Origin: Clostridia bacterium
GTDB taxonomy: Bacteria; Bacillota; Clostridia; TANB77; CAG-465
Reading direction: 5' to 3'
Assembly: GCA_028684095.1 (NCBI GenBank)
Contig: JAQUGQ010000007.1
Span: forward strand, 13,489 to 77,488
DNA: 64,000 bases
Every line of letters begins with the position of its first letter. Within the stretch, counting starts at the first letter, position 1. The translations under genes were made by a program, and so were the position numbers. The notes beneath the pieces are model-generated. The model did no database searches and was not told the origin of the DNA. It saw only the letters and a program-made list of their open reading frames with translations. This document shows positions 9,577 to 46,591 of this stretch, piece by piece.

Positions 9577-9679
9577 TATATTTATTCTACTATTTATTCT
9601 ACTATTTATATTTATTTAATTGATTAATGTAACAAATACAAATAAATATAAATATTATATAACTAGGAGGTACCTAAAA

Positions 9680-10489
9680 ATGGAAAAAACAAATAATAAC
9701 GGAGATTTACATAGAGATGTTATGGTGATGCCTGATTCTTATATGCCTATTAGACCACTTACAATTGGAATGAAAGCTCCTGACTTTATTGCAGACACTA
9801 CTTTTGGCACTGCTAAAATGTCAGATTACACTGGAAAATGGCTTGTATTCTTTTCACATCCAGGTGACTTTACACCTGTATGTACAACAGAATTTATTTC
9901 GTTTGCTAAGTATTACCCAGAGTTTGCAAGAAGAAACACTAGCTTACTTGGATTATCAATAGATAGCAATGCATCGCATTTAGCATGGGTATACAACATA
10001 TACAAGATGACTGGTATACAAATACCTTTTCCAGTAGTTGCTGATAGAAATATGGCAATAGCTAAGATGTATGGAATGATGCCAACTGATCAAAACATTA
10101 CTCAAACAGTAAGAAGTGTTTTCATAATAGACCCAGATCAGAAAATTAGAGCTATATTACAATATCCTTTGACAAACGGTAGAAATATTCCAGAAATATT
10201 AAGACTATTAGATGCACTACAAATCACTGATAGTGAGAATGTTGTAACACCTGCAAATTGGATGCCAGGTCAACCAGTAATAGTTCCATATCCTAAAACA
10301 TATGATGAGCTATTAGAAAGAGTTCAAAATCCAATGGGATATAACTGTATGGATTGGTATTTATGTTATAAAAAAGGTTTTGAATCTATGCAGCCAATGA
10401 TGGACTCACAACCTATGTTTACTAATACAATAGGCAATATGATGCCACAATCAAACATGAATATGTGTCAAAATTGCAATATGAATTAA
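9680..10489 (+). CDS. peroxiredoxin (Prx6/1-Cys-like AhpC/TSA family) with Met/Asn/Gln-rich C-terminal tail
   Basis: Start moved to ATG 9680 behind AGGAGG (9665-9670). FFSHPGDFTPVCTTEF is the peroxidatic-Cys motif. YNCMDWYLC lies near the usual C-terminus, followed by about 37 extra residues. Confidence 0.85.
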   Translation: MEKTNNNGDLHRDVMVMPDSYMPIRPLTIGMKAPDFIADTTFGTAKMSDYTGKWLVFFSHPGDFTPVCTTEFISFAKYYPEFARRNTSLLGLSIDSNASHLAWVYNIYKMTGIQIPFPVVADRNMAIAKMYGMMPTDQNITQTVRSVFIIDPDQKIRAILQYPLTNGRNIPEILRLLDALQITDSENVVTPANWMPGQPVIVPYPKTYDELLERVQNPMGYNCMDWYLCYKKGFESMQPMMDSQPMFTNTIGNMMPQSNMNMCQNCNMN

Positions 10490-15949: not shown

Positions 15950-16513
15950 ATGAAAAATTTTAAAGAAATAGCTATAATTACGATGTTATTAATGGTTTTA
16001 ATATACTTTACTATAATAAATAGTAATAATACACCATCTGAACAAATTTCAAGTGTTTCTAGTGGTGATAAAAAAACTAATATTACTGAACAATTTACAA
16101 AAGCTTATGTGTCTAGAATAATTGATGGGGATACAATTGAAGTTACTATAGATTCAAAAAAGTATAAGGTTAGGTTTATTGGTATTGATTGTCCTGAATA
16201 TACGTCAAAAATAGAATATTACGGTAAAGAGTCTACAAAATATACTAGTTCTATTCTCATTAATACATATATTTTTTTAGAAAAAGATGTTAGCGAAGCT
16301 GATCAATATGGACGTTTGCTTCGCTATGTATGGTTAGAAGTTCCAATATCAAACTCTATTAATGAAATAAAAACAAAAATGTTTAATGGAATATTAGTGG
16401 TTAATGGATATGCAAGTGCAGTTACATATCCACCAGATATTAAATATTTCGAAGAATTTAAAGAGCTAGCAGCTGATGCTAGAAATACTAATATGGGATT
16501 GTGGAACAAATAA
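15950..16513 (+). CDS. membrane-anchored/secreted thermonuclease (SNase family)
   Basis: 187 aa. N-terminal TM. Motifs DGDTIEV, VRFIGIDCPE and YGRLLRYVW. Confidence 0.8.
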   Translation: MKNFKEIAIITMLLMVLIYFTIINSNNTPSEQISSVSSGDKKTNITEQFTKAYVSRIIDGDTIEVTIDSKKYKVRFIGIDCPEYTSKIEYYGKESTKYTSSILINTYIFLEKDVSEADQYGRLLRYVWLEVPISNSINEIKTKMFNGILVVNGYASAVTYPPDIKYFEEFKELAADARNTNMGLWNK

Positions 16514-16547
16514 TAGTATATGATATAATATATTGCTAGTTAGCTAT

Positions 16548-16584
16548 AAAAGCAAATTAATTTAACTACAAATTTGCTTTTTTC
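16548..16584 (+). terminator. rho-independent terminator after nuclease gene
   Basis: AAAAGCAAATT (16548-16558) pairs with AATTTGCTTTT (16571-16581), then a T-run. Confidence 0.75.
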
Positions 16585-16602
16585 TTAATTTTATGGTATA
16601 AT
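16574..16602 (+). promoter_or_regulatory. sigma-A-type promoter for the large ncRNA
   Basis: -35 TTGCTT (16574-16579), 17-nt spacer, extended -10 TGGTATAAT (16594-16602). Confidence 0.5.
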
Positions 16603-16609
16603 ATATAAT

Positions 16610-17180
16610 TGATGGTGCATTATTCTAGTTGTACTGTCTATTATGAGGGTGGGGCTAAAAATCCACTAAAAGGCACATCGTTGAAGTTTCTTGTTTATGC
16701 GCAATACGCCCAGTTTTGTGTGTTTTCAGGGAGTAAAGGAACTAGGGTACGTTATAACGGCATATAGCTTATTCCCTAGTTTCGTGGAGACTTAATGTTT
16801 AATTAATTGAGTGTAACCTATACAAAGTGCCAAGACACAATGTATAGTGTAGCCTGTCTTGAGTGATAATATTGGGATTTATATTAAAAGTTTTAAAATT
16901 GTTGGCCATGATTTTTAGACTTATGATAATGAAACTATTGTTGCGAAAAAGACTAATAATAGATAACAGTATATTTATAGGAAAACTTCTAGGATGTTTG
17001 TTTTATTTAAAAGCAAGGTCTTTTAGGAATTAAGGTACGGAATTAAGTGGTGATCTAGTTTTCTTTTGGGTAACCGGAGAATTTTCTCTTTAAATGGAAA
17101 CGGCTAAACAGTAATGTTTAGTAGAGATTAGAGAAATTCTACTAGACCTAAACCGTAAAATTTACCTAATTTTCTACCAT
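16610..17180 (+). ncRNA. ole: large structured RNA, probable OLE (ornate large extremophilic) RNA
   Basis: About 570 nt with no credible ORF and visibly higher GC than its flanks. Many local helices: GGAACTAGGG/CCCTAGTTTC, CAAGACA/TGTCTTG, CTAAACA-GTAA-TGTTTAG (GNRA loop) and AGTAGA/TCTACT. A 4-TM protein gene follows immediately on the same strand. Ends are approximate. Confidence 0.55.
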
Positions 17181-17217
17181 CTAAATATTTTTTAATAGGG
17201 GTTGTAAATAATTTATA

Positions 17218-17790
17218 ATGGAAATAGCAGAAATAAAAGAAATTAAAAAGAAAAGAATTAAAAAAGAAAAAGTTGAAGATTCCACTCTTAAGTGGTTTAT
17301 ATCTATATTTGTTTTAACATTTATTTTATCTTTATTTTTTTCATATGTGTCAGCAGAATCAATAAAGGGCTTACCACTTATTCCAGCAATATTAATATTA
17401 ATTGTTGTTATATCAATAGGTGTATTATTCGATATTATTGGCGTAGCTGTAACGGTTGCAAAAGAAGATGAATTTCATGCTAAAGCAAGCAAAAAACTTA
17501 AAGGTTCTAAAACAGCTATCAAACTTATACGTAATGCACATAAAGTTTCTAATTTTTGTGCAGATGTGATAGGTGATATAGCAGGTGTTCTAAGTGGTGC
17601 CATAAGCGCTTTAATAGCACTTAAAATTACTGATGTATATGGTTTGAGTTTTAATATACAATTTTTAATTAGTGCTTTGGTTGCTTCACTAACGGTTGGT
17701 GGTAAAGCAATTGGTAAGATAATTGCAAGAAACAATACAACAAAAATAATTGCCGTAGTAAGCAAAATTTTACATTTTTTTAAGAAGTAA
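17218..17790 (+). CDS. oapA: four-TM membrane protein, probable OLE-associated protein A
   Basis: 190 aa (about 21 kDa). Basic N-terminus then four hydrophobic helices. Its position directly 3' of the OLE-like RNA matches the ole-oapA arrangement. Confidence 0.5.
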   Translation: MEIAEIKEIKKKRIKKEKVEDSTLKWFISIFVLTFILSLFFSYVSAESIKGLPLIPAILILIVVISIGVLFDIIGVAVTVAKEDEFHAKASKKLKGSKTAIKLIRNAHKVSNFCADVIGDIAGVLSGAISALIALKITDVYGLSFNIQFLISALVASLTVGGKAIGKIIARNNTTKIIAVVSKILHFFKK

Positions 17791-17794
17791 TATT

Positions 17795-17821
17795 ATAGTA
17801 GATTAATCTACTATTTTTTTA
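17795..17821 (+). terminator. rho-independent terminator after oapA-like gene
   Basis: ATAGTAGA (17795-17802) pairs with TCTACTAT (17807-17814), then T7. Confidence 0.8.
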
Positions 17822-17896
17822 TGCCAAATTTAATTTAAATACCATTTTGGAATAAAAAATACCTTATGTTAAAATAACACAAAGCATTCTTTAAAT

Positions 17897-18709
17897 TTAC
17901 ATATTTGCTGCAGATTTTTCTTCTAATCTTAATTTATCTGCTATCATAGCTATAAACTCGGAATTTGTTGGTTTTCCTTTATTTGAATTAACTGTATAAC
18001 CAAATATTTTATCATGTACTTCTATTTGTCCTCTATTCCATGCTACTTCAATAGCATGTCTTATAGCTCTTTCTACCCTAGAAGGTGTTGTATCAAACAT
18101 ATGTGATAAATTTGGATATAAAACTTTTGTAACAGCATTAATAACATCCTCATTTTTAACAGTCATCATTATTGCTTCTCTTACATATTGGTATCCTTTT
18201 ATATGAGCAGGTACACCAACATCATGTATTGCATTTGTAACTCTTACTTCTAAACTTGTATTTAATCTTCTTGTATCTAATACATTATCTCTAGAACTAT
18301 ATCTGCTACTCACAACAGTTGTTGCATTATCAGGTGACATTAAATCTCTAACTCTTTCAGTTAAGCTCTTCATATCAAATGGTTTTACAACATAATATGT
18401 TGCTCCCAATGATATCGCTTTTTGAGTTATTCTTTCTTGACCTATTGAAGACATTACAATTACTAAAGGCATTTTAAATTCACACTCTTTAGACATTTCT
18501 TCTAAAACAGTTAACCCATCCTTTTCTGGCATTATTATATCTAATAATAATACATCCGGATTCATTTCTTTCATAAGCTTCATAGCATTTGTTCCATCAT
18601 ATGCATATGTAACAATTTCCATGTCTTCTTGAATATTAATATAGTCTTTAAGAAGCATTACAAACTCCTTATTATCATCCAGCACCATAACTTTTTTCTT
18701 TTGAACCAT
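17897..18709 (-). CDS. spo0A: sporulation master regulator Spo0A
   Basis: Start moved to ATG 18709 (SD GGGAGG). Receiver domain has [14 protein letters not shown] and KPF. C-terminal Spo0A-specific DNA-binding domain has [18 protein letters not shown] and [18 protein letters not shown]. Confidence 0.95.
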
Positions 18710-18804
18710 TTTATACCTCCCTACCTTATCTCTTAGTACATTATAATTATACACATTTTAATGTACTAAATCAAGGTTTTTCCTAAAAATTTACAATCGA
18801 GTTA

Positions 18805-18968: not shown

Positions 18969-19424
18969 TTATTTTATATTAATATTTTCAAATTCAATAC
19001 TTTTTTTAGAACTAAATTTAGTATTTAGAGCTATTATGGAATTATAAGGTATCATTAAATCTCTTACTCTGTCAATAAATTTTTTTATATTAAATGGTTT
19101 TATAAAATAATACATTGCTCCTAATGATATTGCATTTTGAATTATTTTAACGTGTGATATTGAAGACATTATAAACACCAACGGCATCTTAAATTCAAGC
19201 TCTTTAGATATTTCCTTTAATATCGTTAGCCCACTTTTTTCGGGCATTACTACATCTAATAATAATACATCTGGATTAGTTTTTTTTATCAGATTTATTG
19301 CATTTGTACCATCATATGCATAAGTAACAACCTCCATATCTTTTTGAGTATTTATATAATTTTTAAGAAGTATTACAAACTCCCTATTATCATCTAATAT
19401 CATGATCTTTTTCTTTTGATTCAT
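18969..19424 (-). CDS. receiver-domain-only paralogue of Spo0A (no DNA-binding domain)
   Basis: Start moved to ATG 19424 (SD GGAGG). 151 aa, with 88/128 identical residues to the Spo0A receiver in a hand-made gap-free alignment. DD, LLLDVVMPEKSG, MSS and KPF are retained. Confidence 0.85.
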   Translation of the reverse strand: MNQKKKIMILDDNREFVILLKNYINTQKDMEVVTYAYDGTNAINLIKKTNPDVLLLDVVMPEKSGLTILKEISKELEFKMPLVFIMSSISHVKIIQNAISLGAMYYFIKPFNIKKFIDRVRDLMIPYNSIIALNTKFSSKKSIEFENINIK

Positions 19425-19532
19425 ACTTACCTCCACACCTTATCTCTTAAATATTGCAACTCCTTATAATAAAATTGAAAAATTGCTTCTTTGCAAAGTT
19501 CATAAAATAGTTTTTTTAAATAAGTAATAACT

Positions 19533-21159: not shown

Positions 21160-22068
21160 TTATTCCTCCATTTTATTTAATTTTATATACATATAGAATA
21201 TAAATATATACGATAATATATTTATATTTAAAACCAAGTTTCCTATAAATGTTTTTATCAATATAGTATAATATTCGTTATTCGTTAGAATAAAACCAAA
21301 TAATATATACATATTTAGTAGTATCAATACTATTAATACTAATTTAGAGGAAAATATATTTTGTTTTTCTTTTTCTTTTTGAAAATTAGTTTTCATTTGT
21401 ATTTTAGAAAATTTATCCAATAAGTTTCCAAAATCCCCACCATATATATAACAAAATTGAAGTAATGTTATAAATTGATTTATTTTTTTAATATTTACAC
21501 TTTTCTTTAAAGTTTCAAATGCATCATATATTTTGATCCCCTTCTGCACTGAAATATTAAACTTATTTATATATGTCTTTATCGGTTCTTCAACATTTGC
21601 TCTTCGAAATGCTTCTATTATATCATTATTCACATCTGTGTAATTTTTGAGACTTATAATATAATTTGGAAACATTCTTAATATTTTATTTTTTCTATAA
21701 TATGAAAAATACCTAATAATAAAATATGGGAGAAATAACATAAATGTAGAAAAAATTAGTGATGATGAAAATAAATGTAAGAAATTAAATGTAATTATAA
21801 ATGTTATTATAAAAATAACTATAGATAAAATTAAAATTGTTAATATAGAAATAATTTTGATATTACTGATTTTAAAAGATAAATTTGTTTCATCTATTAT
21901 ATATGATATTTTTTTTATAAATGATAGTTCTCTTATTTTATATATCATTTCACTCTTTAAATCAAGCATTATGTTTTTATATTTTTTTTGATTATAGAAA
22001 CTATCACAGATATATTGAATTATATAGTATATCGTAATTATCCCAATAATAGTAATAAGCATTTTCAT
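21160..22068 (-). CDS. polytopic membrane protein, TadB/TadC/GspF-like platform protein
   Basis: 302 aa. One N-terminal TM, TM pair, a ~110-aa cytoplasmic helical domain (FPNYIISLKNY...GGDFGNLLDKFSKIQ), then C-terminal TMs. This is T2SS-F-like topology directly after the CpaF-like ATPase. Confidence 0.55.
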   Translation of the reverse strand: MKMLITIIGIITIYYIIQYICDSFYNQKKYKNIMLDLKSEMIYKIRELSFIKKISYIIDETNLSFKISNIKIISILTILILSIVIFIITFIITFNFLHLFSSSLIFSTFMLFLPYFIIRYFSYYRKNKILRMFPNYIISLKNYTDVNNDIIEAFRRANVEEPIKTYINKFNISVQKGIKIYDAFETLKKSVNIKKINQFITLLQFCYIYGGDFGNLLDKFSKIQMKTNFQKEKEKQNIFSSKLVLIVLILLNMYILFGFILTNNEYYTILIKTFIGNLVLNINILSYIFIFYMYIKLNKMEE

Positions 22069-22073
22069 TGTTG

Positions 22074-23303
22074 TTATACACCTCCTTTACTTTTATAATA
22101 GTATAAATTTTCAAAATATTTACTTTCAATTTTTGTGTATGTTAATATAATTTTAATTATTGTTTTTTGTTTTTGTCTATCATAATAAACTTCTGCTATT
22201 TCATTTACTTTATAATCTTTCATAAATATTATATAATTAATACTACTCGAAAGCATCTGATTTACAAATTCTTCTTTATATGATTGTGCTTTTATATCTC
22301 TTTTTATTAGTGTTGTAAGTCTATCTAATGTATTATACACACCATCAGAATGTACTGTGGTAAGACCCATATGTCCTGTTGCTATACTGTCAAAGAATAC
22401 TAAAGCTTCAGCCCCTTTTAACTCACCTATAATTATTACATCATTAGACATAACTAAGCTATGCTTCATTAACTTATCTAAAGTAATTTTCTTGGATTCC
22501 TCTCTGTTTTCTAAAATTTCTCTTTGAATTACATTTTTACCTTCTATAAATAGTTCCATAGTTTCCTCGTTTGTTGTTATAGCAATATTATCTGAAATTT
22601 TATTTATCAAAGCCCTAAGTAAAGTTGTTTTTCCACTTCCGCCTTTACCACAAATCACAATATTTTTTTGTTTAATTATAAAATTATTTAGTAAAATATA
22701 TATATCAAAATTTATCATTTCATCTATTAAAAATAATCTTTCTAAATTAACATTTGTATCATTTCTATGTATACGAATAACTAAACTAGGTGAAAATACA
22801 TTAACGGGAGGTAATCCAGCTTCAATTCTTAAATTATATTTTTTATCACTTACAATTATCATTGGAACATCAAAGTTAATATTTTTATTATTTTTTAGTA
22901 TACAATATCTAACATAATCGTAAAATTCTGTTTCTGATTCAAATGTAGAGTTTGTTTTTTTCCATTTACCTCTAGATTTAATATATATATCATTATATTT
23001 TACAACTCTAATATCACTTATATCCTTATTATCTATATACATTTGTAATATGTCATAACCAAACATTTTATTAAATATATTATTGATAACTTTTTGTATA
23101 TTTTCTGTATCATTCAAACTATACTTGTTATATAAATATTTTTCTATTACATTTATCAAAACTTCTTTATCCTCATTTTTTAAATTTTCTAAGTAATTAT
23201 CAATTAAATATTTCTGTAAATCTTTAATATTTATATTTTCAAGGTTTTTATTTGTAATATTTTCTTCTTGAGATTTAGTGGTTTTAAATGGATTTATTAT
23301 CAT
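22074..23303 (-). CDS. TadA/CpaF/VirB11-family secretion ATPase
   Basis: 409 aa. Walker A ICGKGGSGKTTLL, Asp box/Walker B VIIIGELKGAEA, His box ATGHMGLTTVHS. Confidence 0.85.
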   Translation of the reverse strand: MIINPFKTTKSQEENITNKNLENINIKDLQKYLIDNYLENLKNEDKEVLINVIEKYLYNKYSLNDTENIQKVINNIFNKMFGYDILQMYIDNKDISDIRVVKYNDIYIKSRGKWKKTNSTFESETEFYDYVRYCILKNNKNINFDVPMIIVSDKKYNLRIEAGLPPVNVFSPSLVIRIHRNDTNVNLERLFLIDEMINFDIYILLNNFIIKQKNIVICGKGGSGKTTLLRALINKISDNIAITTNEETMELFIEGKNVIQREILENREESKKITLDKLMKHSLVMSNDVIIIGELKGAEALVFFDSIATGHMGLTTVHSDGVYNTLDRLTTLIKRDIKAQSYKEEFVNQMLSSSINYIIFMKDYKVNEIAEVYYDRQKQKTIIKIILTYTKIESKYFENLYYYKSKGGV

Positions 23304-24546
23304 ATCTCATTTTCACTTCCTTTGTAATAAACATAGATATAATCTTCTTTTTAATGTTGTTTTTATCACGATTATTTAAATAATTTACACCCAAGCTTTT
23401 AATTATTTCTTTTTCATTTAATTTAGAATTTATATTACTTACTGCTCCATTTATATATCCTTCTATATTAAATTCAAAATCTACTATCGATACAATTTTA
23501 TAACCTTCCAACAAATTTGTAATTTGAGAAATATCTAATGAATTCTTTTGTTTTTTATTTATTATTATGAATATATTATTTCTGGAAATTCCCCAAAGCT
23601 TTGTCATAAGTTCTAAATATTTAATACCTTGTCTTAAACTTATGTAATTAGGATTGATAACAAAAAATATGGTTGAAGAAATGTTTAAAGTATATCTCAC
23701 AACATCTATAAATGGAGATGATGGCAAATCAACTATAACATAATCATATTTGTTAATTGTACTGAAATATATTTTTTTATAATAATCAGTATTCAACTTA
23801 TTTTGACATTCAAAAATACTAGAATTATTAGTCATATACCATAATTTTTTGTTATTTTTATCCTTATACATATATTTATTTACAATATCATTTATATCTC
23901 TTTTATTGTCTATATCTTCTATCATCTGTGATAATATATTTCCTGATCCATTTAGATTATTATATATATCTATGCAAGGATTTTGTATATCCATATCAAG
24001 CATAGCAACTTTTATTTTTAATTTATTACATAGCGATTTTGATAATAATCCTGAAATATATGATTTTCCTGAACCACTTGTCCCATATATAGATATAAAT
24101 TGCTTTGGTACAACCGTGGCCTCAATTTTTTTATCTTCAGTTTTAGCGTTTGGTAAATTATTAATATTATTTTTATATATAACTTTATCATTACTATTAA
24201 TACTTTCTACTATATCAGTTATTTCTATTTCTTTTCCTTCTATAACATTAAATATTTGATTAGCAAATAAAAACTCTTTATATTGTTCGTCCAAATATTC
24301 TGTCAAAAGTATAATTTTAACATTATCATTGGCCAATCGTATCTGCTTTATGTATAATTCTTTTGCTAAATTTCCATTTAAACTATCTTTTGTAATCAAT
24401 ATTATACTCATATTGGTTTCTCTTTGTTTACTTAAATATTCAATAACACCTTCCATATATGATATATCATGTGGATATACTTCATTAATATATATTTCAT
24501 CTATTTTTTGTTTAATATATTCATTATCTATTGCTAAAACTATCAA
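23284..24546 (-). CDS. TadZ/CpaE-like ATPase (receiver-like N-domain + MinD/ParA-type domain)
   Basis: 420 aa. TTG start behind AGGGGGAA. N-terminal ~120 aa is receiver-like. Deviant Walker A SIYGTSGSGKSYISG, plus YDYVIVDLP. Confidence 0.7.
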   Translation of the reverse strand: MIVLAIDNEYIKQKIDEIYINEVYPHDISYMEGVIEYLSKQRETNMSIILITKDSLNGNLAKELYIKQIRLANDNVKIILLTEYLDEQYKEFLFANQIFNVIEGKEIEITDIVESINSNDKVIYKNNINNLPNAKTEDKKIEATVVPKQFISIYGTSGSGKSYISGLLSKSLCNKLKIKVAMLDMDIQNPCIDIYNNLNGSGNILSQMIEDIDNKRDINDIVNKYMYKDKNNKKLWYMTNNSSIFECQNKLNTDYYKKIYFSTINKYDYVIVDLPSSPFIDVVRYTLNISSTIFFVINPNYISLRQGIKYLELMTKLWGISRNNIFIIINKKQKNSLDISQITNLLEGYKIVSIVDFEFNIEGYINGAVSNINSKLNEKEIIKSLGVNYLNNRDKNNIKKKIISMFITKEVKMRYDNKSI

Positions 24547-26291
24547 TTTTCATTCCCCCTTATTAATTTATCTTCATAATCATTTGACTTTACATTTAAA
24601 TTTATTACATTACTTTGAAATAACATAAGCATGCTCCCTTTATTTAATCTTGTAATTTCACTTAACTCATATGTATTTAATATACCAGTTTTAGCTAATA
24701 TTTCCGAATCTGTATATTCCATTTTAAAAAACATTTTAATAAAAGAATTATTAATTATACTTTTACCATAAGTCCCCAAATCTTTACTAAAAAAATCACA
24801 TACATCTTGGGTTATAGTTACTATGCCTGCGTTTAATTTACGTATCGTTTTAAATAGCATAAATATTTGCTGAGCAGAGAATGAATTATCATAAATAAAT
24901 TTCCATACTTCATCAATATATATTATTGCTTTTTCATTTGAATTTGTCATTCTTTTAATAATTTCATCAAGAATAATTTTAAATAATATATTAGTCATCT
25001 TTACATTTAATTTATTTAAGTTAAACACTATTAATTTATTACTTAAATCTATAGTTGTTCTTCTATTTAAAAACATATAGTCTATTAACATCTGTTCAAA
25101 ATTCATAATCAGCTTTTTAAAACCTTTATTATTTATAGTTGTGTTAGATTTTAAATTTTTGTATACATCTTCTAATATTGGCATATATGTTGAATCTTTA
25201 ATAACTTTATTTAGATATATTTTGTTGCTACTTGATACTGTATACATATTAATTACATCATCATTGATTCCCTTATCTAAATATGATTTTTTAATTGCCA
25301 TAATTATATCTGTTTTATAATTCACTTCAATATTTAATATTTTATCCAAAAATTCATATACTATATTTATTTTCTTGTAAAGAAAATTTTTTTCTGTTAT
25401 ATCTATTTCATCTATATCTAATATATTTAAAAATGTATTACATTCATTATTAAAATTAATATATTCTCCACCAACCTCAGAAGCAATATTTATATATTCT
25501 CCTTCTGGATCAAATATATATTGTTTTATATTTATAATATATTGCCTTAATATAAGTAATTTAACAAAATATGATTTACCAGAACCACTACTTCCAAATA
25601 TACAAATATTTGAATTAGTATATTTATTACTAAAAATATCTATATTACATATTTTTTTATTATAACTTGTATATCCAAATATAACACCATTTTTATCAAA
25701 AACTGTATCAGTGTAAAACGGGAAAATATTTACAACATTACTTGTAGTCATATTTGAATAACATGATTTAGTAATACTTTCATCTAAAAAATTTAATGGT
25801 AGAGTTGATAAATATCCTTGCATATGTCTAAAATTAAGTGCAATTGATATTAGCATTTTTGAATATAATATACTCCTAAACTTTTTTGTAGTATATAAAA
25901 TGTCATTTTTATTATTACTTTTAATAGATATATATGTATATGTATTATAAACTTGTTCATTATTAATTTGAATTTCATATCTTAACTTTTTAGCATCTGA
26001 TGTTAACTTATCTAAAATATCTACATCAATTTGATTATTGTTAATTGTATTTCTTTCTGACTTAGAATTCGATATATTATATGTAAGTTCTTTTAAAACT
26101 TTAATAGTGTCTAGTTTTTGTATAAATATACTCATATCAAAATGAATATCTTTAGGTAAACTATTCATTAATTCTAAAAATTTCATTCTTTTTGGATAGT
26201 TTATAATACATATTGTAGCAATATATTTTCCATCAATGTTTATATATTTAAAATTTGTGTTATCTATAAATCCAGGATAAAAATTCAACAT
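24543..26291 (-). CDS. VirB4/TrsE/TraE-type conjugation ATPase, C-terminal (ATPase) part
   Basis: 582 aa. Motifs CIFGSSGSGKSYFVKLL, IFDPEGEY, AIIYIDEVWKF and GIVTITQDV. Confidence 0.8.
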   Translation of the reverse strand: MLNFYPGFIDNTNFKYINIDGKYIATICIINYPKRMKFLELMNSLPKDIHFDMSIFIQKLDTIKVLKELTYNISNSKSERNTINNNQIDVDILDKLTSDAKKLRYEIQINNEQVYNTYTYISIKSNNKNDILYTTKKFRSILYSKMLISIALNFRHMQGYLSTLPLNFLDESITKSCYSNMTTSNVVNIFPFYTDTVFDKNGVIFGYTSYNKKICNIDIFSNKYTNSNICIFGSSGSGKSYFVKLLILRQYIINIKQYIFDPEGEYINIASEVGGEYINFNNECNTFLNILDIDEIDITEKNFLYKKINIVYEFLDKILNIEVNYKTDIIMAIKKSYLDKGINDDVINMYTVSSSNKIYLNKVIKDSTYMPILEDVYKNLKSNTTINNKGFKKLIMNFEQMLIDYMFLNRRTTIDLSNKLIVFNLNKLNVKMTNILFKIILDEIIKRMTNSNEKAIIYIDEVWKFIYDNSFSAQQIFMLFKTIRKLNAGIVTITQDVCDFFSKDLGTYGKSIINNSFIKMFFKMEYTDSEILAKTGILNTYELSEITRLNKGSMLMLFQSNVINLNVKSNDYEDKLIRGNEN

Positions 26292-28788: not shown

Positions 28789-30282
28789 TTATTTCGTATT
28801 TAGAACCCTTTGTTCTTGTGTCATTACAGCTAGTGCTCTGACATTATCTATATTTAAACATAATTTATCTGATATTCTAGTTCCTAAATTTACATCAGTC
28901 TTATAGAATAATGCAGTCATTCTATATTGCAATTTTAAATCAGCTAACTTTAAACTGCCACATATATTATTAATAAGTATTTCTTTCTGTTTATCATTCA
29001 TTACTCTTCTATATAATTCACCTGGTTGTTCGAAATCTATATCTGATGATGGATATGTATGTCTCTGTATGAAGCCAGAAACATCAAAATCTGGTGTTCT
29101 ATATTTTTCATCAGTATAAACATCCTCGTAACTATTTGGAAAATAGTTAAGTTTAGTATTACCTTGTGAAGTGTCTGCCATATCACCATCTTTTTGATAT
29201 GTTGTCATAGGACTTTTAGGTTTATTTACAGCAAGTTCGTTTACATTTGCCCCAATTCTATGTCTATGTGCATCTGGATATGCCATAATTCTACCTTGTA
29301 GCAATTTATCAGGTGATGGCCCTATTCCATTTACAAAATGTGATGGAGAGAATGCTACTTGTTCTATATCAGTATAGAAATTCTGTGGATTTCTATTAAG
29401 TACCATTCTTCCAAGTGGAATAAGTGGATAGTCTTTATGATACCATACTTTAGTAGGATCAAAAGGATCAAATCTATATTTTTTTGCTTCTTCAATACTC
29501 ATTATTTGTACATATACTTTCCATGATGGATAGTTACCACATTTTATGTTGTCATATAAGTCACTCATTGAACTATCTGGATTTGTGCCTGATAATTTAG
29601 TAGCTTCTTCATCAGTCCAATTTTCAATACCTTGTTCAGTCTTGAAATGATATTTTACCCAACAATATTTGTTTTTTTCATTATACCACATAAATGTATT
29701 TGTTCCAAATCCGTGCATATGTCTAAATCCTTTAGGTGTTCCTCTATCTGAAAATAGTATTATAACTTGATGCATAGATTCTGGTGTAAGTGAAAAAAAA
29801 TCCCACACCATATTAGGGTTTTTAAGATTGTTTTTTGGATCTCTTTTTTGTGTATGTATAAAATCAGGAAATTTCATAGCATCACGTATAAAGAAAACTG
29901 GTGTATTATTGCCTACTAAATCATAGTTACCATCTTCTGTATAGAATTTAAGTGCAAAACCCCTTGGATCTCTAGCGCTATCTGATGAACCTTTTTCGCC
30001 ACCAACTGTTGAAAATCTAGCTATCATTTCAGTTTTTTTGCCTACATTTGATAAAAATTTTGCACACGTGTATTTACTTAAATCATTTGTAACTTCAAAA
30101 TATCCAAATGCCCCTGATCCTTTTGCATGTACTACTCTTTCTGGTATTCTCTCCCTATTAAAATGTGCTAGTTTATTCATCATATAAGTATCTTCTATTA
30201 CTGTTATACCAGGTATACCTGTAGATAAAGAAAAATTATCGTTTGATATTGCATTTCCTAACTCATCTGTTAATTTTCTCAT
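28789..30282 (-). CDS. katA: monofunctional heme catalase
   Basis: 497 aa. Motifs FNRERIPERVVHAKGSGAFGYFEVT, RFSTVGGEKGS and DPRGFALKF, with a tyrosine-ligand region. Confidence 0.95.
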   Translation of the reverse strand: MRKLTDELGNAISNDNFSLSTGIPGITVIEDTYMMNKLAHFNRERIPERVVHAKGSGAFGYFEVTNDLSKYTCAKFLSNVGKKTEMIARFSTVGGEKGSSDSARDPRGFALKFYTEDGNYDLVGNNTPVFFIRDAMKFPDFIHTQKRDPKNNLKNPNMVWDFFSLTPESMHQVIILFSDRGTPKGFRHMHGFGTNTFMWYNEKNKYCWVKYHFKTEQGIENWTDEEATKLSGTNPDSSMSDLYDNIKCGNYPSWKVYVQIMSIEEAKKYRFDPFDPTKVWYHKDYPLIPLGRMVLNRNPQNFYTDIEQVAFSPSHFVNGIGPSPDKLLQGRIMAYPDAHRHRIGANVNELAVNKPKSPMTTYQKDGDMADTSQGNTKLNYFPNSYEDVYTDEKYRTPDFDVSGFIQRHTYPSSDIDFEQPGELYRRVMNDKQKEILINNICGSLKLADLKLQYRMTALFYKTDVNLGTRISDKLCLNIDNVRALAVMTQEQRVLNTK

Positions 30283-38023: not shown

Positions 38024-38113
38024 TGGCGGAGAATGAGGGGTTCGAACCCTCGCATACCTTACGGCATCTAACAGTTTAGCAAACTGCCCCCTTAACCACT
38101 TGGGTAACTCTCC
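38024..38113 (-). tRNA. tRNA-Ser (anticodon GCU)
   Basis: The rc reads GGAGAGTTACCCAAGTGG...CAGTTTGCTAAACTG...long variable arm...GGGTTCGAACCCCTCATTCTCCGCCA. 90 nt with encoded CCA. Confidence 0.95.
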
Positions 38114-38170
38114 TTGTAAAAATGTTATATATATTAATAAGCGAAAATAATAATATTTCCGCTTAAAATT

Positions 38171-38259
38171 TGGCGGAGGAGGTAGGATTTGAACCCACGG
38201 TACCTTACGATATCACTAGTTTTCAAGACTAGCTCCATAAACCACTCGGACACTCCTCC
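38171..38259 (-). tRNA. tRNA-Ser (anticodon UGA)
   Basis: The rc reads GGAGGAGTGTCCGAGTGG...CTAGTCTTGAAAACTAG...variable arm...GGGTTCAAATCCTACCTCCTCCGCCA. 89 nt with encoded CCA. Confidence 0.95.
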
Positions 38260-38374: not shown

Positions 38375-39259
38375 TTACATCCTTATTTTTAATTTAGAAA
38401 GTAAACTCTCTAATCCTTCTTCATCATTATATTCAATAACAAGTTTTTGATGAGATTTAGTTGTCTCTAATTTTACTTTGTAACCAAAGTAATCTTTTAA
38501 CTTATTTTCAATTTTTTGATAATATATATTCTTAGGTTGTTTTTTTTCTTTATTTCTAGTATAATCTTCAGATCCATAAATTAATTTTTCTACATCTCTT
38601 ACTGTTAACTTTCTTTCTACTATTTTTTCTACTATTTCTAATTGTTTATTATAATCTTCTATTACAAGTAATGCTCTAGCATGTCCTTCTACAATCTTTC
38701 CGTCCATTAAATAATCCAATATTTTATCTTGTAATTTAAGAAGTCTCATTATATTTGAAACAGTAGACACATTCTTACCAGTTATTTTAGCAACTTCAGA
38801 TTGTGAATATCCATCAATATCCATTAATTCTTTGATTGCTTTTGCTATTTCAACTATATTTAAATCTTCTCTTTGTATATTTTCAATTAATGCTACTTGC
38901 TTTTTCTTAGTATCTGTATAATCTTTTATTATTGCTGGAATTGCTTTAAGTCCTGCCATCTTAGCAGCTCTCCATCTTCTTTCACCAGCAACTATAGTAA
39001 ATCCTGTATCATCTTTTACAACTAATATAGGTTGTAATACACCATTTTCTTTTATCGAATCAGCGAGTTCTTCTAATTTTTCTTTATCAAAAACTTTTCT
39101 TGGTTGATTGAGCATAGGTTCAACTTCTGTAATATTAAGTTCAACTACTTTATCTAACTCTTTATGCACTTTTTCCTTAGATGCATGTGTTACCTTTTCT
39201 AATTCTAAGCCATCTTCTCCAAAGAAAACATTTAAACCTCTTCCTAAACCTTTTGACAT
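38375..39259 (-). CDS. parB: chromosome partitioning protein ParB/Spo0J
   Basis: 294 aa. Motifs GLGRGLNVFF, NQPRKVFDKEKLEELADSIKENGVLQPILV and AGERRWRAAKMAG. Confidence 0.93.
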   Translation of the reverse strand: MSKGLGRGLNVFFGEDGLELEKVTHASKEKVHKELDKVVELNITEVEPMLNQPRKVFDKEKLEELADSIKENGVLQPILVVKDDTGFTIVAGERRWRAAKMAGLKAIPAIIKDYTDTKKKQVALIENIQREDLNIVEIAKAIKELMDIDGYSQSEVAKITGKNVSTVSNIMRLLKLQDKILDYLMDGKIVEGHARALLVIEDYNKQLEIVEKIVERKLTVRDVEKLIYGSEDYTRNKEKKQPKNIYYQKIENKLKDYFGYKVKLETTKSHQKLVIEYNDEEGLESLLSKLKIRM

Positions 39260-39260
39260 A

Positions 39261-40034
39261 TTATTTTACCCCCTTTTCATTAAGAGCGAGTAACTCTTTA
39301 GCTAATTTTTTATATGTTTCTGCACCTTTACAATCTTTGTCATACAATGTAATTGGAAGTCCATGACTCGGAGCTTCACTTAATCTTATATTTCTAGGTA
39401 TAATTGTTTGAAAAACTTTATTACCGAAATATTTTTCAACTTCTATAGCAACTTCACTAGATAAATTAGTTCTTGCATCAAACATTGTAAGTATAACACC
39501 TTCTACAATTAATTCTTGGTTTAAATGCATTTGTACTAGTTTGATTGTATTAATAAGTTGTCCTAATCCTTCTAATGCATAGTATTCACATTGAATTGGT
39601 ACAAGAACACTATCTGAAGCAGTAAAAGCATTTAAAGTTATAAGTCCAAGTGATGGGGGACAGTCTATTATAACATAATCATACTTGTCCTTAACACTAT
39701 CTATCGCTTTTTTTAATCTATTTTCTCTAGAAACCATAGAAACTAGTTCTATTTCTGCTCCTGCTAAATTAATATTAGCTGGGCATACATCTAATTTTTT
39801 TATCATAGTTCCTTGTATAGTTTCATCCATTGGTATACTATCTACAAGTACATTGTACACTGATTTATCTTGATGTGCTTCAACACCAATTCCACTAGTT
39901 GCATTACCTTGTGGATCTATATCTACAAGTAACACACGTTTTCCTTTTTCAGCTATACAGGCACTTAGATTTACGGCTGTTGTTGTCTTTCCAACTCCGC
40001 CTTTCTGATTAGCTATCGATATAACTTTTGCCAT
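39261..40034 (-). CDS. parA: chromosome partitioning ATPase ParA/Soj
   Basis: Start moved to ATG 40034 (SD GAGGTG). MAKVISIANQKGGVGKTTTAVNL is the deviant Walker A. Confidence 0.93.
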   Translation of the reverse strand: MAKVISIANQKGGVGKTTTAVNLSACIAEKGKRVLLVDIDPQGNATSGIGVEAHQDKSVYNVLVDSIPMDETIQGTMIKKLDVCPANINLAGAEIELVSMVSRENRLKKAIDSVKDKYDYVIIDCPPSLGLITLNAFTASDSVLVPIQCEYYALEGLGQLINTIKLVQMHLNQELIVEGVILTMFDARTNLSSEVAIEVEKYFGNKVFQTIIPRNIRLSEAPSHGLPITLYDKDCKGAETYKKLAKELLALNEKGVK

Positions 40035-40177
40035 TAGGGTCACCTCTCGTATATTATAATACATTTAGAAACAAAAAAAAAGAGTAATGACAAAATTTGT
40101 TGCTTTTTAAGTCATTTTCTCTTTAATTTATTTATAATTATCTTAAAACATCACCTTAAAATCAAAACATATGTTCT

Positions 40178-40924
40178 TTATAATGGTAACTTTTTAATTT
40201 TATCATAGCTTCTTGGATAAATTTTTGGAGTTCTATCAACTTTTTGTACTTCAAGAATACATCTTTTAAATATTTCTACATTATCTTTTTCATTAACTTC
40301 TAAATCATATTCATATTTATTTAATATTTTAATATTAAGCTTATTAAATGCAGTTCTAGATAAACTAATTTCTTGTTGAATATTATCACCTTTCATATAT
40401 AGACATTTTCCTTTTATTGTAACATATGGAGATGTACATTCACAAAGCACACTTAAAGATGCAACTGCTCTAGCAACTACTATATCATACTTTTCTCTAT
40501 ATATAATGTCGTTTGCCTTATCTTCTGCTCTACCATGTACTATAGTAATATTTTTTAAGTTTAATTCTTTTATCACTTCTTTTAAGAAAAGTAATCTTTT
40601 ATTTAATGAATCTAATAATGTTATATTTACTTTACCATCAAAAAATATTCCTATAACGACTCCAGGAAAACCTGCACCAGTTCCAACATCAATTATATTT
40701 TCATATTCTTTTATATATTTTGTACATTCTAAACTATCTATAAAATGTTTTACTATTATTTGATATTCATTTGTAATCGATGTTAAATTTATCTTTTCAT
40801 TCCATTCTATAAGCATATTCTTATATATTTGTAATTTTTCTAGTTTGTCATCATTAAGCTCAAAACCGTACTTTTTTGCTTCTAAATACAAATTTTCCTT
40901 AAATGCAATCTTCTCTTCTTTCAT
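40178..40924 (-). CDS. rsmG: 16S rRNA m7G527 methyltransferase RsmG (GidB)
   Basis: 248 aa. DVGTGAGFPGVV is the SAM motif. Conserved position after mnmG. Confidence 0.9.
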   Translation of the reverse strand: MKEEKIAFKENLYLEAKKYGFELNDDKLEKLQIYKNMLIEWNEKINLTSITNEYQIIVKHFIDSLECTKYIKEYENIIDVGTGAGFPGVVIGIFFDGKVNITLLDSLNKRLLFLKEVIKELNLKNITIVHGRAEDKANDIIYREKYDIVVARAVASLSVLCECTSPYVTIKGKCLYMKGDNIQQEISLSRTAFNKLNIKILNKYEYDLEVNEKDNVEIFKRCILEVQKVDRTPKIYPRSYDKIKKLPL

Positions 40925-40936
40925 ATGAAAACTCTC

Positions 40937-42829
40937 CTATCTTCTTTTTATTTGACTTAAATAAATTAAAAGTACTGATATATCAGCTGGGGATACCCCA
41001 GATATTCTAGATGCTTGCCCAACTGACAGTGGTTTCTGTTTATCAAGTTTTTGCCTTGCTTCTAAACATAATCCTTTGATTTTAGAATAATTAATATCTT
41101 GTGACAACTTTTTATTTTCAAGTTTCTTAAATTCTTCTATTTGAGAAAATTGTAATTTAATATATCCTTCATATTTTAAGTGTATTTCTACCTGTTCTGT
41201 AACATCTTTACTTAAATTTGGTTTTTCTTTGTCCAAAGCCATCAAATTATCGTATGATATTTCACTTCTTTTAATCAAATCACTTGCTCTATGACACACA
41301 TCTATCTCACTACTACCAAGTTTTCTAAATAATTCATTAGTTTCTTCGTTCGGATATATGTTTAATTTTTTAAGTCTTTCAATTTCACATTCTATCATTT
41401 CTCTTTTGATTTTAAATTTATTATATATTTTCTGTGAAATAAGACCTATATTATATCCTTTTTCTCTCAAACGTAAATCTGCATTATCTTGCCTTAAAGT
41501 AAGCCTATACTCAGCTCTAGACGTCATCATTCTATATGGTTCATTAGTCCCTTTTGTTACTAAATCATCTATTAATACTCCTATATATCCCTCAGATCTG
41601 TCTATTACAAAACTACCTTTATTATCTATCTTAAGACTAGCATTAATACCTGCCATAAGGCCTTGTACTGCAGCTTCTTCATAACCAGAACTTCCATTTA
41701 CTTGTCCTGCAAAAAACAAACCTTCTATACTTTTATACTCAAGATTTAAATTTAAGTTTATTGAATCAATTGCATCATATTCAATAGCATATGCCGGTCT
41801 CATTAGTGTTGCATTTTCTAGCCCTTGGACACTTCTATACATAGCTATTTGTATTTCTTCTGGCATAGATGAAGACATACCTTGTATGTACATTTCCGAT
41901 GTATCTTCCCCTAATGGTTCAATAAATATTTGATGTCTGTCTCTATCTCTAAATCTAACCACTTTGTCTTCTATAGATGGACAGTATCTAGGTCCTATAC
42001 CTTCTATTTGACCGCTATATAGTGGTGATCTATGAATATTGTCTAATATTATTTTATGTGTATTTTCATTGGTATATGTAAGATAACAGTTGACTTGATT
42101 TTTATTAATCATGTCAATATTATTAACATTTTCATATGAAAATAGACTAATCTCATTATCACCTTTTTGTATTTCCATTTTAGATAAATCCATTCTATTT
42201 ATATTTATTCTTGAAGGTGTACCAGTTTTAAATCTTCTAAGCTCAACACCAATATCTATTAAATTTTGTGATAAATCATTAGCAGGAAAAACCCCATCTG
42301 GACCACTTTCATAGGATATTTCTCCTATTATTATCTTACCTTTTAAATACGTTCCTGTCGCAACAATTATAGTCTTTGTATTGTATATTGCACCTATCAT
42401 TGTTTTTACTCCAATAGCTTTATCTTTTTTATCATTTGTTATTATTTCTACTATTTCAGCTTGATAAATATCTAAATTAGCTTGATTTTCTAATGTTTTT
42501 TTCATTTCAATATGATATTTTTTTCTATCTGACTGCATTCTAAGAGAATGAACTGCTGGACCTTTAGATTTATTTAACATTTTTGATTGTATAAATGTTT
42601 TATCAGCATTTTTTCCCATTTCTCCACCCAATGCATCTAATTCTTTCACTAAATGACCTTTGGATGTTCCACCAATACTCGGATTACATGGCATATTAGC
42701 TAATGTATCCATATTTATAATAAACATAGCGGTTTTTTTACCTAATCTACTTGTTGCCAATGCTGCTTCGCATCCTGCATGTCCACCACCTATTACAACT
42801 ACATCATATTCTCCTGCATTATAACTCAT
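40937..42829 (-). CDS. mnmG: tRNA uridine-5-carboxymethylaminomethyl modification enzyme MnmG (GidA)
   Basis: 630 aa. [16 protein letters not shown] is the FAD motif, plus [16 protein letters not shown]. Confidence 0.97.
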
Positions 42830-42837
42830 ATTTTTCC

Positions 42838-44208
42838 CTACTTTCCTAAACAGAACTTTGTAAATATTTTATCTACTATATCTTGTGATACATCGTTTCC
42901 TATTATTTCTCCTAATTTTTTTGCACTTTCTTTAATTTGAATAGATATTATGTCTACTGGCATATCATTTATCACATCTTTTTTAGCATTCTTTAAATAT
43001 TCAATAGATTTTTCTAATAGTTTCTTATGTCTTTCATTAACTATCATAACTTCATTTACACTATTTAAATTATCATCAAAGAACATTGATATAATTTTTC
43101 TTTTTAATTCATCTATGCCTTTATTTTCATAAACAGAAATGTTAATAGTATCATTTATATTATTTTCACTTAATTTAAGCGTAAAGGTATCAAAAATCGA
43201 TTTTATATACTTGTCCATCTTATTTATCACAACTATATATTTTATTCCTTTATTTTTGATTTTAGAGATCATATCTATATCTTCTTTTGAAAGATTATCA
43301 TCTGCATTTAAAATATATATAACCAAATCTACCTCGTCTATTTTTTTTATACTTTTTGAAACACCTATTTTTTCTATTATGTCCTCTGTGTCTCTAATAC
43401 CTGCAGTATCTGAAATATTTAAAATAATATCACCTATGTTTACTGTTTCTTCTACTATATCTCTAGTTGTACCCGCAATATCAGTTACAATTACTCTTTC
43501 ATACTTAGCTAAATTATTTAAAAGTGATGATTTGCCTACATTAGGTCTACCTAATATAGCAACATTTATTCCATTTTTTATATATTTTCCCTCTTCATAT
43601 GAATCTAATAGCTTAGTTATCTCAAATATTTCTAATTCAAGTAAATTTAAAACATGAATATTATCAACTTCAACATTATCGTATTCTGGGTAATCAATAC
43701 TAACTTCTACTTGAGCAAGTATTTCAATTAACTTTTCTCTTAAACTTACAATCTTTTTGAATAACTGACCATCTAATTGTTCAATTGCTATTCTTGCTTC
43801 AGTTTTTGTCTTAGCATTTATTAAATCTATAATGCCCTCCGCTTCAGATAAATCCATTTTTCCATTTAAAAATGCTCTTTTAGAAAATTCTCCAGGAGTT
43901 GCTATTTCTGCTCCATTTCTAACAACTAAATTTAATATTTCCTTTGTTATATATGATCCTCCATGACAATTTATTTCACAAATATCTTCACCTGTAAAAG
44001 AATTTGGAGCTTTAAAATATGATATCAAAACATTATCAACAAATGATCCATTATCAATTAATTTTCCATATATAATACTATTTGGTGATAATTTCGAATA
44101 ATTATTAAATAAATTTTTGATAATATTTAGACTATTTTCACCACTAAGTCTAATTATGTTTATTCCACTTGTTCCAAGTGATGTTCCTATTGCTGTTATT
44201 GTTGACAT
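42838..44208 (-). CDS. mnmE: tRNA modification GTPase MnmE (TrmE)
   Basis: 456 aa. G1 [12 protein letters not shown] and G3 DTAGIR. C-terminal FCLGK. Confidence 0.97.
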
Positions 44209-44278
44209 AATATCTTTCCTTTCCTATTAAAAAACCAGCTTTCATGCTGATTTTTATTAATTCATCTTTAATTTTATG

Positions 44279-44938
44279 TTAATTATTAAGTTTTTTCTTT
44301 ATAACAAGTAATCTTCTTGGCTCTTCTCCATAACTTTCTGTTATAACATCATTTCTAGAAGATAATTCTTGATGAACAATCATTCTTTCATATGCAGACA
44401 TCGGCTCTAATTTAATTGATTTGCTAAATTTATTAACATTATCTGCCATCTTATTAGCATAAATTTTTAATTTATCTTCTTTTTCTTTTTTATAATCATT
44501 TATTTCAACAAAAACTTTAGAATATTCTTCTTCTCCTTTTTGTAACATTGCATTAAGTATTGATTGTATAGCTTCTATAGTTTTACCTCTATATCCAATT
44601 AAATGTTTTGGATCATCAAGTTCCAATTTAACAATAACTTTTTTACTATCTCCTGTACAAGTATGTTTTATATTACTTTCTCCAGTTATTTTAAATATAT
44701 CACTTAATACATTGTCTATTTTCTCTTGAGTTGCTATTAAAACATCTTCTGTTACTTTTTTATCAACAATTAATTTTACTTTTGCTAACTTTTGTGAAAG
44801 CATACCAAGTATCCCACCTGATTTAGGTTCTTCTAATATCTCAATAATAACATCATCTCTTGCAACTTTAAGTTCTTCTAAACCTTTTCTAACCGCTTCT
44901 TCTATTGTTTTACCTACTTGTTCAGTTGTTCTTTTCAT
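44279..44938 (-). CDS. jag: RNA-binding protein Jag/KhpB (Jag-N, KH, R3H)
   Basis: 219 aa. KH-like GYRGKTIEAIQ. R3H-like C-terminus MSAYERMIVHQEL...ESYGEEPRR. Confidence 0.88.
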   Translation of the reverse strand: MKRTTEQVGKTIEEAVRKGLEELKVARDDVIIEILEEPKSGGILGMLSQKLAKVKLIVDKKVTEDVLIATQEKIDNVLSDIFKITGESNIKHTCTGDSKKVIVKLELDDPKHLIGYRGKTIEAIQSILNAMLQKGEEEYSKVFVEINDYKKEKEDKLKIYANKMADNVNKFSKSIKLEPMSAYERMIVHQELSSRNDVITESYGEEPRRLLVIKKKLNN

Positions 44939-45786
44939 TACTTTTTTCCTCCCTTATCTGAATCTAATAAAAAATTAACATCATCTTTTTTGTGTTCTTC
45001 TATTAATTTAGATATAACAGACTGCTGAGCTATTTGATACATACTACTTATCAACCAATATATTCCTAATGCTAAAGGCATTGTGTAAGCTATAAATCCA
45101 GAAAGAATAGGCATCATAAGGCTCATAGATTTTTGCATTTGCTTTTGTTCATCTGTCATTTCAGTACTATTTTGCATTTGTTTTATTTGATAAATTGAAA
45201 ATAATACACTAAGAATAGGTATTATAAGTGATAATGGATTTGTATTGTTTTCATCCTTTGAAGAAAACACATCTGAAGGTTTATGCCCTAAATTAAGTCC
45301 AATAAAATTCATATCTATTAGTTTATTATTATTAGCAATTACTATTTCAGAAGTATTCATTTCTGTTTTTGAAACCTCTTCTTTATTTAATAATTGTTTA
45401 GTATATATTTCAATTTCATCTTTTGGAAGTTGTATTACGTATGTTAAGGGTTGATTAACTATATAAAACATTCCAAGTATAAGTGGTAATTGTATTAAAA
45501 TCGGTAAGCAACCACCTAATGGATTAATTTTATGTTCACTGTATAATTTAGTTATTTCTTCACCTTGTTTTGTTTTATCATTTTTGTATTTTTTTATTAT
45601 TTCATCATATTTTGGCTTTACCTTCTGCATTTCTTTACTAGATTTCATCTGCTTTAAAGAAAGAGGAAATAATAAAGTTTTTGCTAGTATTGTGAAAAGT
45701 ATTATAGATAGTGCATAATTATCTTGTGTTAAATTATATATAACTCTAATAATAGCACCAAATATGTTGGCTATCATTTCTATCAT
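44938..45786 (-). CDS. yidC: membrane protein insertase YidC/SpoIIIJ
   Basis: 282 aa. Motifs SIILFTILAKTLLFPLSLKQMKS, NPLGGCLPILIQLP and ALGIYW. Confidence 0.93.
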   Translation of the reverse strand: MIEMIANIFGAIIRVIYNLTQDNYALSIILFTILAKTLLFPLSLKQMKSSKEMQKVKPKYDEIIKKYKNDKTKQGEEITKLYSEHKINPLGGCLPILIQLPLILGMFYIVNQPLTYVIQLPKDEIEIYTKQLLNKEEVSKTEMNTSEIVIANNNKLIDMNFIGLNLGHKPSDVFSSKDENNTNPLSLIIPILSVLFSIYQIKQMQNSTEMTDEQKQMQKSMSLMMPILSGFIAYTMPLALGIYWLISSMYQIAQQSVISKLIEEHKKDDVNFLLDSDKGGKK

Positions 45787-45810
45787 AAATTTTCTCCTAT
45801 ATTTTAAAGG

Positions 45811-46053: not shown

Positions 46054-46055
46054 AA

Positions 46056-46400: not shown

Positions 46401-46456
46401 TTATTCACCTCACCTAATGCAAATAAGTGGATATGAAAACATACCCACTTACATTT

Positions 46457-46591
46457 TTAAGCACATAGTACTTTTCTTCCTTTTGCTCTTCTTCTTTTTA
46501 ATATTGCTCTTCCAGCAGCTGTCTTCATTCTTTTTCTAAAGCCATGAACTTTTGCTCTTTGTATTGTTTTTGGATTAAATGTTGTATTCAC
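46457..46591 (-). CDS. rpmH: 50S ribosomal protein L34
   Basis: Below ORF-track cutoff. GTG start behind GGAGGTGCC. Translation is [44 protein letters not shown]. Confidence 0.93.

Follow-up and report, generated by a model that had tools for sequence, protein, structure and literature searches.

A full-length OLE RNA match followed by an oapA homologue next to spo0A in an uncultured Clostridia bacterium

We analysed a stretch of 64,000 nucleotides (nt), here called the window, from a metagenome-assembled genome (MAG) of an uncultured Clostridia bacterium (GTDB lineage TANB77, CAG-465; assembly GCA_028684095.1, contig JAQUGQ010000007.1, positions 13,489 to 77,488); all coordinates below are those of the window. 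On its positive strand, a gene for OLE (ornate, large, extremophilic) RNA is followed by the gene of the membrane partner OapA, an assignment that we regard as practically certain. The first-pass annotation had interpreted this region as an OLE/OapA ribonucleoprotein locus, and a search with the OLE covariance model supported that interpretation: RF01071 matched positions 16596-17196 of the positive strand with 346.5 bits (gathering score 50, E = 3.7e-98) over model positions 1-616, i.e., the full length of the model. The search covered the entire window and 4,227 Rfam families, and no further family reached its gathering score except at two tRNA-Ser genes. A permissive scan of positions 16400-17900 returned, besides OLE, no family with E < 0.27; the families suggested at first as negative controls (ROOL, GOLLD, raiA, tmRNA, RNase P and 6S) were all negative in that interval. 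The family is well described and RF01071 detects it unambiguously; the window element is an ordinary representative of it and not a new type of element.

The ends of the RNA were set by its terminal helix P1, in which GAUGG at 16611-16615 pairs with CCAUC at 17177-17181. This helix was scored together with the Rfam structure in an alignment of 71 full-length OLE copies (alignment A2), where its second pair covaried, being A-U in 57 sequences, G-C in 8 and U-A in 2. The covarying P1 therefore places the bounds of the RNA at 16611-17181 of the positive strand, and the resulting 571 nt agree with the approximately 570 nt of structured RNA initially claimed. A length of about 600 nt and a set of near-invariant blocks are typical of OLE, and the window RNA has both, the blocks being CUAAAAAUCC, GUAGCCUG, UUGGCC, GGAAAAC, AGUGGU and GACCUAA; its GC content was 32%. 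The host also belongs with the bacteria known to carry OLE (Bacillota, typically anaerobes that form spores): Spo0A, YabG, and SpoIIGA with a sigma factor are encoded in the window, and the relatives are Clostridia MAGs.

Pairing was tested in the window and across the alignment. In the window 129 of the 146 RF01071 consensus pairs (88%) were canonical. Over the 71 sequences standard pairs made up 88.3% of the consensus pair cells, as compared with 39-48% in controls slid by 1-3 columns, and compensatory double changes occurred in 88 of 151 pairs; none of 500 shuffles attained any of the pairing measures. The minimum free energy of the 571-nt core was -146.7 kcal/mol (z = -3.5 relative to shuffles). 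Six helices had been named in the first-pass annotation, three of which coincided with the covariation-supported consensus: GGAACTAGGG/CCCTAGTTTC is P6, CTATACA/TGTATAG is the outer stem of P8, and the CTAAACA-GTAA-TGTTTAG hairpin with its GNRA loop is P14.1. The other three (CGTTA/TAACG, CAAGACA/TGTCTTG and AGTAGA/TCTACT) showed no compensatory change and paired no better than shuffles; they were rejected, and their strands fall in other consensus helices.

Helix numbers were assigned by mapping the nucleotide numbers of Lyon et al. 2022 (PMC9723947) onto the RF01071 model, namely 83-147 for the binding fragment, U84/C85, C85-G144 as a pair, and 187-190 for a strand of P6. With this mapping, P5 corresponded to model positions 93-139, P6 to 144-190, P7 to 198-241, P8 to 249-278 and P9-9.3 to 287-383. 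Starting from the 5' side, the P4a hairpin (16648-16667, GGUGGG/UCCACU with the loop GCUAAAAA) was near-invariant in the 71 sequences; P4a has been reported to lie within the OapA docking region (PMC9723947, PMC12265935). Elements of a kink-turn (k-turn) flank P5 at 16678-16738, where Rfam positions 84, 85 and 144 map: U16678-C16679, a GUU bulge, G16683-A16684, P5 itself (16687-16733), J5/6 (16734-16737) and G16738. The latter is the equivalent of G144, and its partner C16679 that of C85; the C85-G144 pair and the role of the k-turn next to P5 in OapC binding have been described (PMC9723947). P6 with its inner hairpin spans 16738-16783; 92-100% of its cells (helices 4-5 of the alignment) were paired and seven of its pairs presented compensatory changes.

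The sole large departure from the RF01071 model was P7 (16791-16811), whose stem has only 5 bp and whose loop has 11 nt, giving 21 nt instead of 44 model positions, with model positions 204-236 deleted. In P8 (16818-16847; helix 7), the outer pairs of the CUAUACA/UGUAUAG stem covaried and the inner part paired poorly. The arm from P9 to P9.3 (16856-16953, helices 8-13), with the UUGGCC tip, had the full consensus length. Farther on, the P13 hairpin (17061-17081) presented a GUAA tetraloop at 17070-17073 and a single bulged U at 17066, and P14.1 (17103-17122), supported by covariation, closed with another GUAA tetraloop. A GNRA loop on P13 together with a single bulge is the recognition site of OapB (PMC7936274). 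The window RNA has the sequence features of both the k-turn (OapC) and the P13 (OapB) sites, and the sequence determinants of the presumed contacts with OapA, OapB and OapC are all present in it.

The alignment also revealed variation within the clade at these sites. The GNRA loop of P14.1 was present in all 71 sequences, and that of P13 in only 9; the 62 OLE RNAs lacking it (A2 columns 598-633) leave the window copy and its closest relatives as the exception, which suggests that dependence on OapB differs within the clade. Divergent OLE copies were seen in four species (L038:5218-5810, L043:5258-5846, L064:5032-5619 and L079:5423-6003). In L038, L043 and L064 unrelated sequence replaces the J4a/5 k-turn strand and the P7-P8 region, and the L079 copy, at 268 bits, lacks most of P8; these copies may be natural forms of OLE without the OapC site.

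The RNA lies in a 704-nt gap between an SNase-type nuclease gene (15950-16513, PF00565) and the next coding sequence at 17218. The first-pass annotation had found no credible open reading frame (ORF) there and considered a translated one incompatible with OLE. We confirmed the length of the gap, whose only positive-strand ORFs encode 52 amino acids (aa; 16609-16767) and 56 aa (16863-17033); both were intact in none of 70 related sequences, and no conserved ORF occurs in the RNA region. A small-protein reading of the region was rejected for this lack of conservation. The fallback offered with the first interpretation, an unclassified large non-coding RNA, and likewise a locus for a small protein without relation to OLE, found no support and are refuted by the RF01071 match, the covariation, the absence of a conserved ORF and the lack of any other matching family; we assign them no likelihood at all. 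The gap had also been called conspicuously less AT-rich than its surroundings: the rise in GC is real but only modest (0.32-0.34 over 16550-17000 vs 0.18-0.29 in the flanks).

We inspected the sequences around the RNA for transcription signals. Transcription of the nuclease gene likely ends at an AT-rich hairpin with a U-rich tail (16548-16581, positive strand; fold -7.9 kcal/mol, z = -3.1), so that ole does not seem to be simply read through from this gene. The putative ole-oapA promoter (16574-16602) consists of a weak -35-like TTGCTT at 16574-16579, a 17-nt spacer and, at 16594-16602, the extended -10 TGGTATAAT that had been noticed before the RNA. A TATAAT-like box was found at the same distance from the 5' end of the RNA and P1 in 69 of 71 related loci, and OLE thus appears to have its own promoter throughout the clade. 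On the other side, oapA starts 36 nt past the end of the RNA on the same strand. This spacer contained no convincing hairpin (fold z = +0.5), and an 8-bp hairpin at 17795-17814 followed by T7 at 17815-17821 forms a putative terminator (17795-17821, positive strand; fold -7.0 kcal/mol, z = -5.0) downstream of oapA. Note that a simple terminator scan, which requires three G-C pairs, missed both AT-rich terminators, and folding revealed them. Since no terminator separates the two genes, ole and oapA are most likely co-transcribed, with transcription ending at 17795-17821.

A single promoter that appears to serve both genes, with no terminator between them, is also what would be expected if the structured region were only a long cis-acting 5' leader of oapA, and not an RNA that accumulates by itself and acts in trans. 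Three observations make this leader highly improbable. The window RNA belongs to the OLE family over its full length, and in Halalkalibacterium halodurans the RNA of this family is an abundant, stable species that binds the OapA protein (PMC12265935). Closed by the covarying P1, the RNA ends 36 nt ahead of the start codon. And the spacing from OLE to oapA among relatives varies from about 20 to more than 400 nt, ill-suited to a leader acting on the ribosome-binding site.

The gene oapA (17218-17790, positive strand) encodes 190 aa (20.6 kDa, pI 9.9) with four predicted transmembrane helices and a DxxxD motif at D116-D120. The comparison with OapA that had been proposed for this protein showed homology: BLASTP against the OapA of Kretsch et al. 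2025 (PMC12286853, Supplementary Table 4) aligned 172 aa, DVIGD included, at 40% identity (E = 3e-34). The reference had been machine-read from a PDF and its DxxxD stands 2 residues off the published D100/D104, so that it may have small reading errors. The motif, D116-V-I-G-D120 in the window protein, was invariant in 35 homologues and is the site of the PM1 mutations D100A/D104A in OapA. The four transmembrane helices that had been annotated were found as hydrophobic peaks at 27-45, 58-76, 117-135 and ~142-160, on the same strand as the RNA, and an AlphaFold2 model (mean predicted local distance difference test score, pLDDT, 78.5) had long helices at 20-49, 54-80, 107-141 and 147-172. The N-terminus, which had been described as basic, is indeed lysine-rich but of mixed charge, with 8 K/R and 6 D/E among the first 22 residues.

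Domain and structure searches related the protein only distantly to CNNM transporters. In Pfam only PF01595 (CNNM/DUF21) was found, with 18.9 bits and below the cut-off of 28.4, without CBS or CorC domains; no NCBIfam model matched, and a search of the sequence against PDB chains gave no match at E <= 10. Foldseek, run against the PDB, placed at the top the archaeal CNNM transporter MtCorB (7M1T, 7M1U) and the CorC transmembrane domain (7CFF, 7CFG), with TM-scores of 0.43-0.57. Membership in the MpfA/CorB/CNNM Mg2+ transporters was rejected given the sub-threshold PF01595 score, the absence of CBS and CorC_HlyC domains and the size of only 190 aa. The OapA of H. halodurans has been described as having weak homology to CNNM, 7M1U as its top structural match, four helices instead of three and a distinctive DxxxD (PMC11332333, Fernando & Breaker 2024), and the window protein matches that description.

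Homologues of the 190-aa protein were searched in one genome per GTDB species. The 80 loci recovered (57-77% identity) were all from uncultured Clostridia-type MAGs, largely of gut or rumen samples. In 75 of them an nhmmer search with the window RNA found an OLE-like sequence directly upstream of the OapA homologue on the same strand; in the remaining five the upstream sequence comprised at most 662 nt. All 13 loci tested with Rfam were OLE, at 268-367 bits.

Some results weigh against an ole-oapA locus in the window. No oapB (YbzG/KOW) or oapC (YbxF/L7Ae) was found with Pfam among the ~65 ORFs of at least 70 aa in the 64-kb window. The Shine-Dalgarno-like AGGGG stands 16 nt from the oapA start codon, a long distance; the locus comes from an uncultured MAG; 17 consensus pairs are non-canonical in the window, mostly U-U in AT-rich stems; and P7 is truncated. 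The short P7 and several U-U mismatches, together with the poor pairing of inner P8, might in addition be read as signs of a decaying, non-functional OLE relic. We find a relic exceedingly improbable, even more so than the leader: the score of 346.5 bits falls within the 268-367 bits of the relatives and 88% of the consensus pairs are canonical; the invariant blocks, the promoter, an intact oapA and the GNRA loops of P13 and P14.1 are all kept; and P7 is naturally variable in the clade, where it measures 12-78 nt (median 27).

The window locus would operate as follows. From a sigma-A-type promoter with the extended -10 at 16594-16602, transcription would begin a few bases ahead of G16611. The product of 571 nt, closed by P1, would adopt the conserved OLE fold with P4a, P5, P6, a short P7, P8, P9-9.3 and P12-P14.1. 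By analogy with H. halodurans and Clostridium acetobutylicum, the OLE RNA may dimerise, and dimers of the four-helix, CNNM-like OapA may bind near P2 and P4a and dock the RNA to the membrane. Two small proteins that bind RNA, OapB at P13/P12.2 and OapC at the k-turn beside P5, would complete the ribonucleoprotein. In H. halodurans or C. acetobutylicum, loss of the particle makes cells sensitive to ethanol and cold, to Mg2+ above 2 mM and to poor carbon sources; by the same analogy, the particle could help the window host to withstand short-chain alcohols and cold as well as an excess of Mg2+ and poor carbon sources.

The genomic neighbourhood contributed less. The first-pass annotation had invoked a gene order ispA-dxs-recN-spoIVB-spo0A around ole. 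Adjacency to spo0A (17897-18754) was confirmed, but this gene is convergent with oapA and not co-oriented, and Pfam found none of ispA, dxs, recN and spoIVB among the same ~65 ORFs, so the neighbourhood argument is only weakly borne out. The order nuclease-ole-oapA-spo0A-yabG was restricted, among the 80 species loci, to the three closest relatives (L003, L004 and L007). The neighbours of the pair in the other species were unrelated genes, those of an SDR dehydrogenase (28 loci), an HD-domain protein (17), a thymidylate kinase (16), a DinB-type polymerase (13) and SpoVT (6). In this clade ole-oapA appears to be an autonomous promoter-to-terminator module with freely changing neighbours. According to the literature, the 16 genes found most frequently near ole include two for sporulation, and the proximity of spo0A thus fits known trends without being diagnostic.

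Just upstream of the full spo0A, and in tandem with it, we observed a 155-aa receiver-only paralogue of Spo0A (18969-19436, negative strand). Its identity to the Spo0A receiver is 63%, and it keeps the acidic pocket, the phospho-acceptor Asp and the conserved Lys, with no DNA-binding domain; the three closest relatives have a single spo0A and no such paralogue. The protein could be a phosphate sink or a decoy. The tail-to-tail arrangement of ole-oapA and spo0A, about 100 nt apart in the window and these three relatives, and the gained paralogue might mean that a stress-sensing OLE particle is coupled to the sporulation decision, for which co-regulation, interference by convergent transcription or a phosphate sink are possible routes. 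We consider such coupling improbable, the alternative being that the adjacency is chance synteny. The adjacency is a small data point for the association of OLE with sporulation genes that has been reported.

The rest of the window presented several features of its own. Downstream of yabG, on the negative strand (21160-26291), a cluster encoding T2SSF-like, T2SSE-like, CbiA/ParA-like and TraG/HerA-type P-loop ATPase proteins looks like a secretion locus of the Tad/Flp-pilus type or the conjugation type; the genes at its start (unk236, T2SSF) also occur in L007. A full-length haem catalase (28789-30282, negative strand; PF00199, 615 bits) and a peroxiredoxin (9620-10489) are encoded in a host that looks anaerobic and spore-forming. 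Positions 38375-50059 correspond to the neighbourhood of the chromosomal origin, with parB, parA, rsmG, mnmG, mnmE, jag, yidC and rnpA in the negative strand and dnaA and dnaN in the positive strand; the two tRNA-Ser genes are at 38024-38259. The ole-oapA pair, on the positive strand and some 30 kb left of dnaA, would be transcribed head-on to replication if the origin adjoins dnaA. When the ORF of infC (translation initiation factor 3, IF3; 54495-54896, positive strand) is read from its first ATG, the initial 30 positions of the IF3_N profile are missing. A non-canonical start codon is classic for infC, and the true start is probably such a codon upstream. Finally, a MiaB/RimO-type radical-SAM methylthiotransferase gene (56082-57507, positive strand) is split by a frameshift into two overlapping ORFs, the first (56082-56909) with UPF0004 and the start of Radical_SAM and the second (56893-57507) with the rest of Radical_SAM and TRAM; it is either a pseudogene or a MAG assembly error.

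The ole-oapA element is already known, and the window adds one more locus to a family of thousands of representatives, many of them from uncultured gut Clostridia; the finding has no bearing on the biochemical role of the OLE particle. The reference system is OLE/OapA of H. halodurans (RF01071; Puerta-Fernandez 2006 and Block 2011, cited in PMC12265935), and the window RNA belongs to the same family over the full model. Both share the helices, including the equivalents of C85/G144 in the k-turn, the GNRA loop and bulge of P13 and the GNRA loop of P14.1, as well as an oapA directly downstream that encodes the DxxxD (equivalents of D100/D104) and four transmembrane helices. Unlike H. halodurans, where the genes are part of a long ispA...dxs...recN operon, the window pair makes up a self-contained unit of two genes, with a putative promoter and terminator of its own; its P7 has 21 nt, its RNA 32% GC, and its OapA a lysine-rich N-terminal extension of about 20 residues. 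The MpfA/CorB/CorC CNNM transporters resemble the window OapA in predicted fold and through the weak PF01595 similarity, and differ from it in that the window protein has a sub-threshold score, no CBS or CorC_HlyC domain, four helices instead of three, and the DxxxD. The OLE RNA of C. acetobutylicum (577 nt), solved as a dimer by cryo-electron microscopy (PMC12286853), is similar in length, in its low-GC Clostridia host and in the domain-1 helices P3-P9.3.

A close comparison is with the OLE RNAs called 'variant 1', from uncultured Clostridia of the gut (TANB77), in which P7-P9 are shortened and the P13 site is often missing (PMC11332333, Fernando & Breaker 2024). As in that group, the nearest relatives of the window copy are without exception MAGs of uncultured Clostridia from gut or rumen, P7 is short, and most members of the clade lack the P13 GNRA loop; unlike it, the window copy keeps a P9-9.3 arm of consensus length and the GNRA loop and bulge of P13. 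In its sequence features, the window copy is intermediate between 'full-length' and 'variant 1' OLE. It is compact and AT-rich, its P7 is very short and its k-turn, P13 and P14.1 sites are intact, and it may help to define the minimal functional core.

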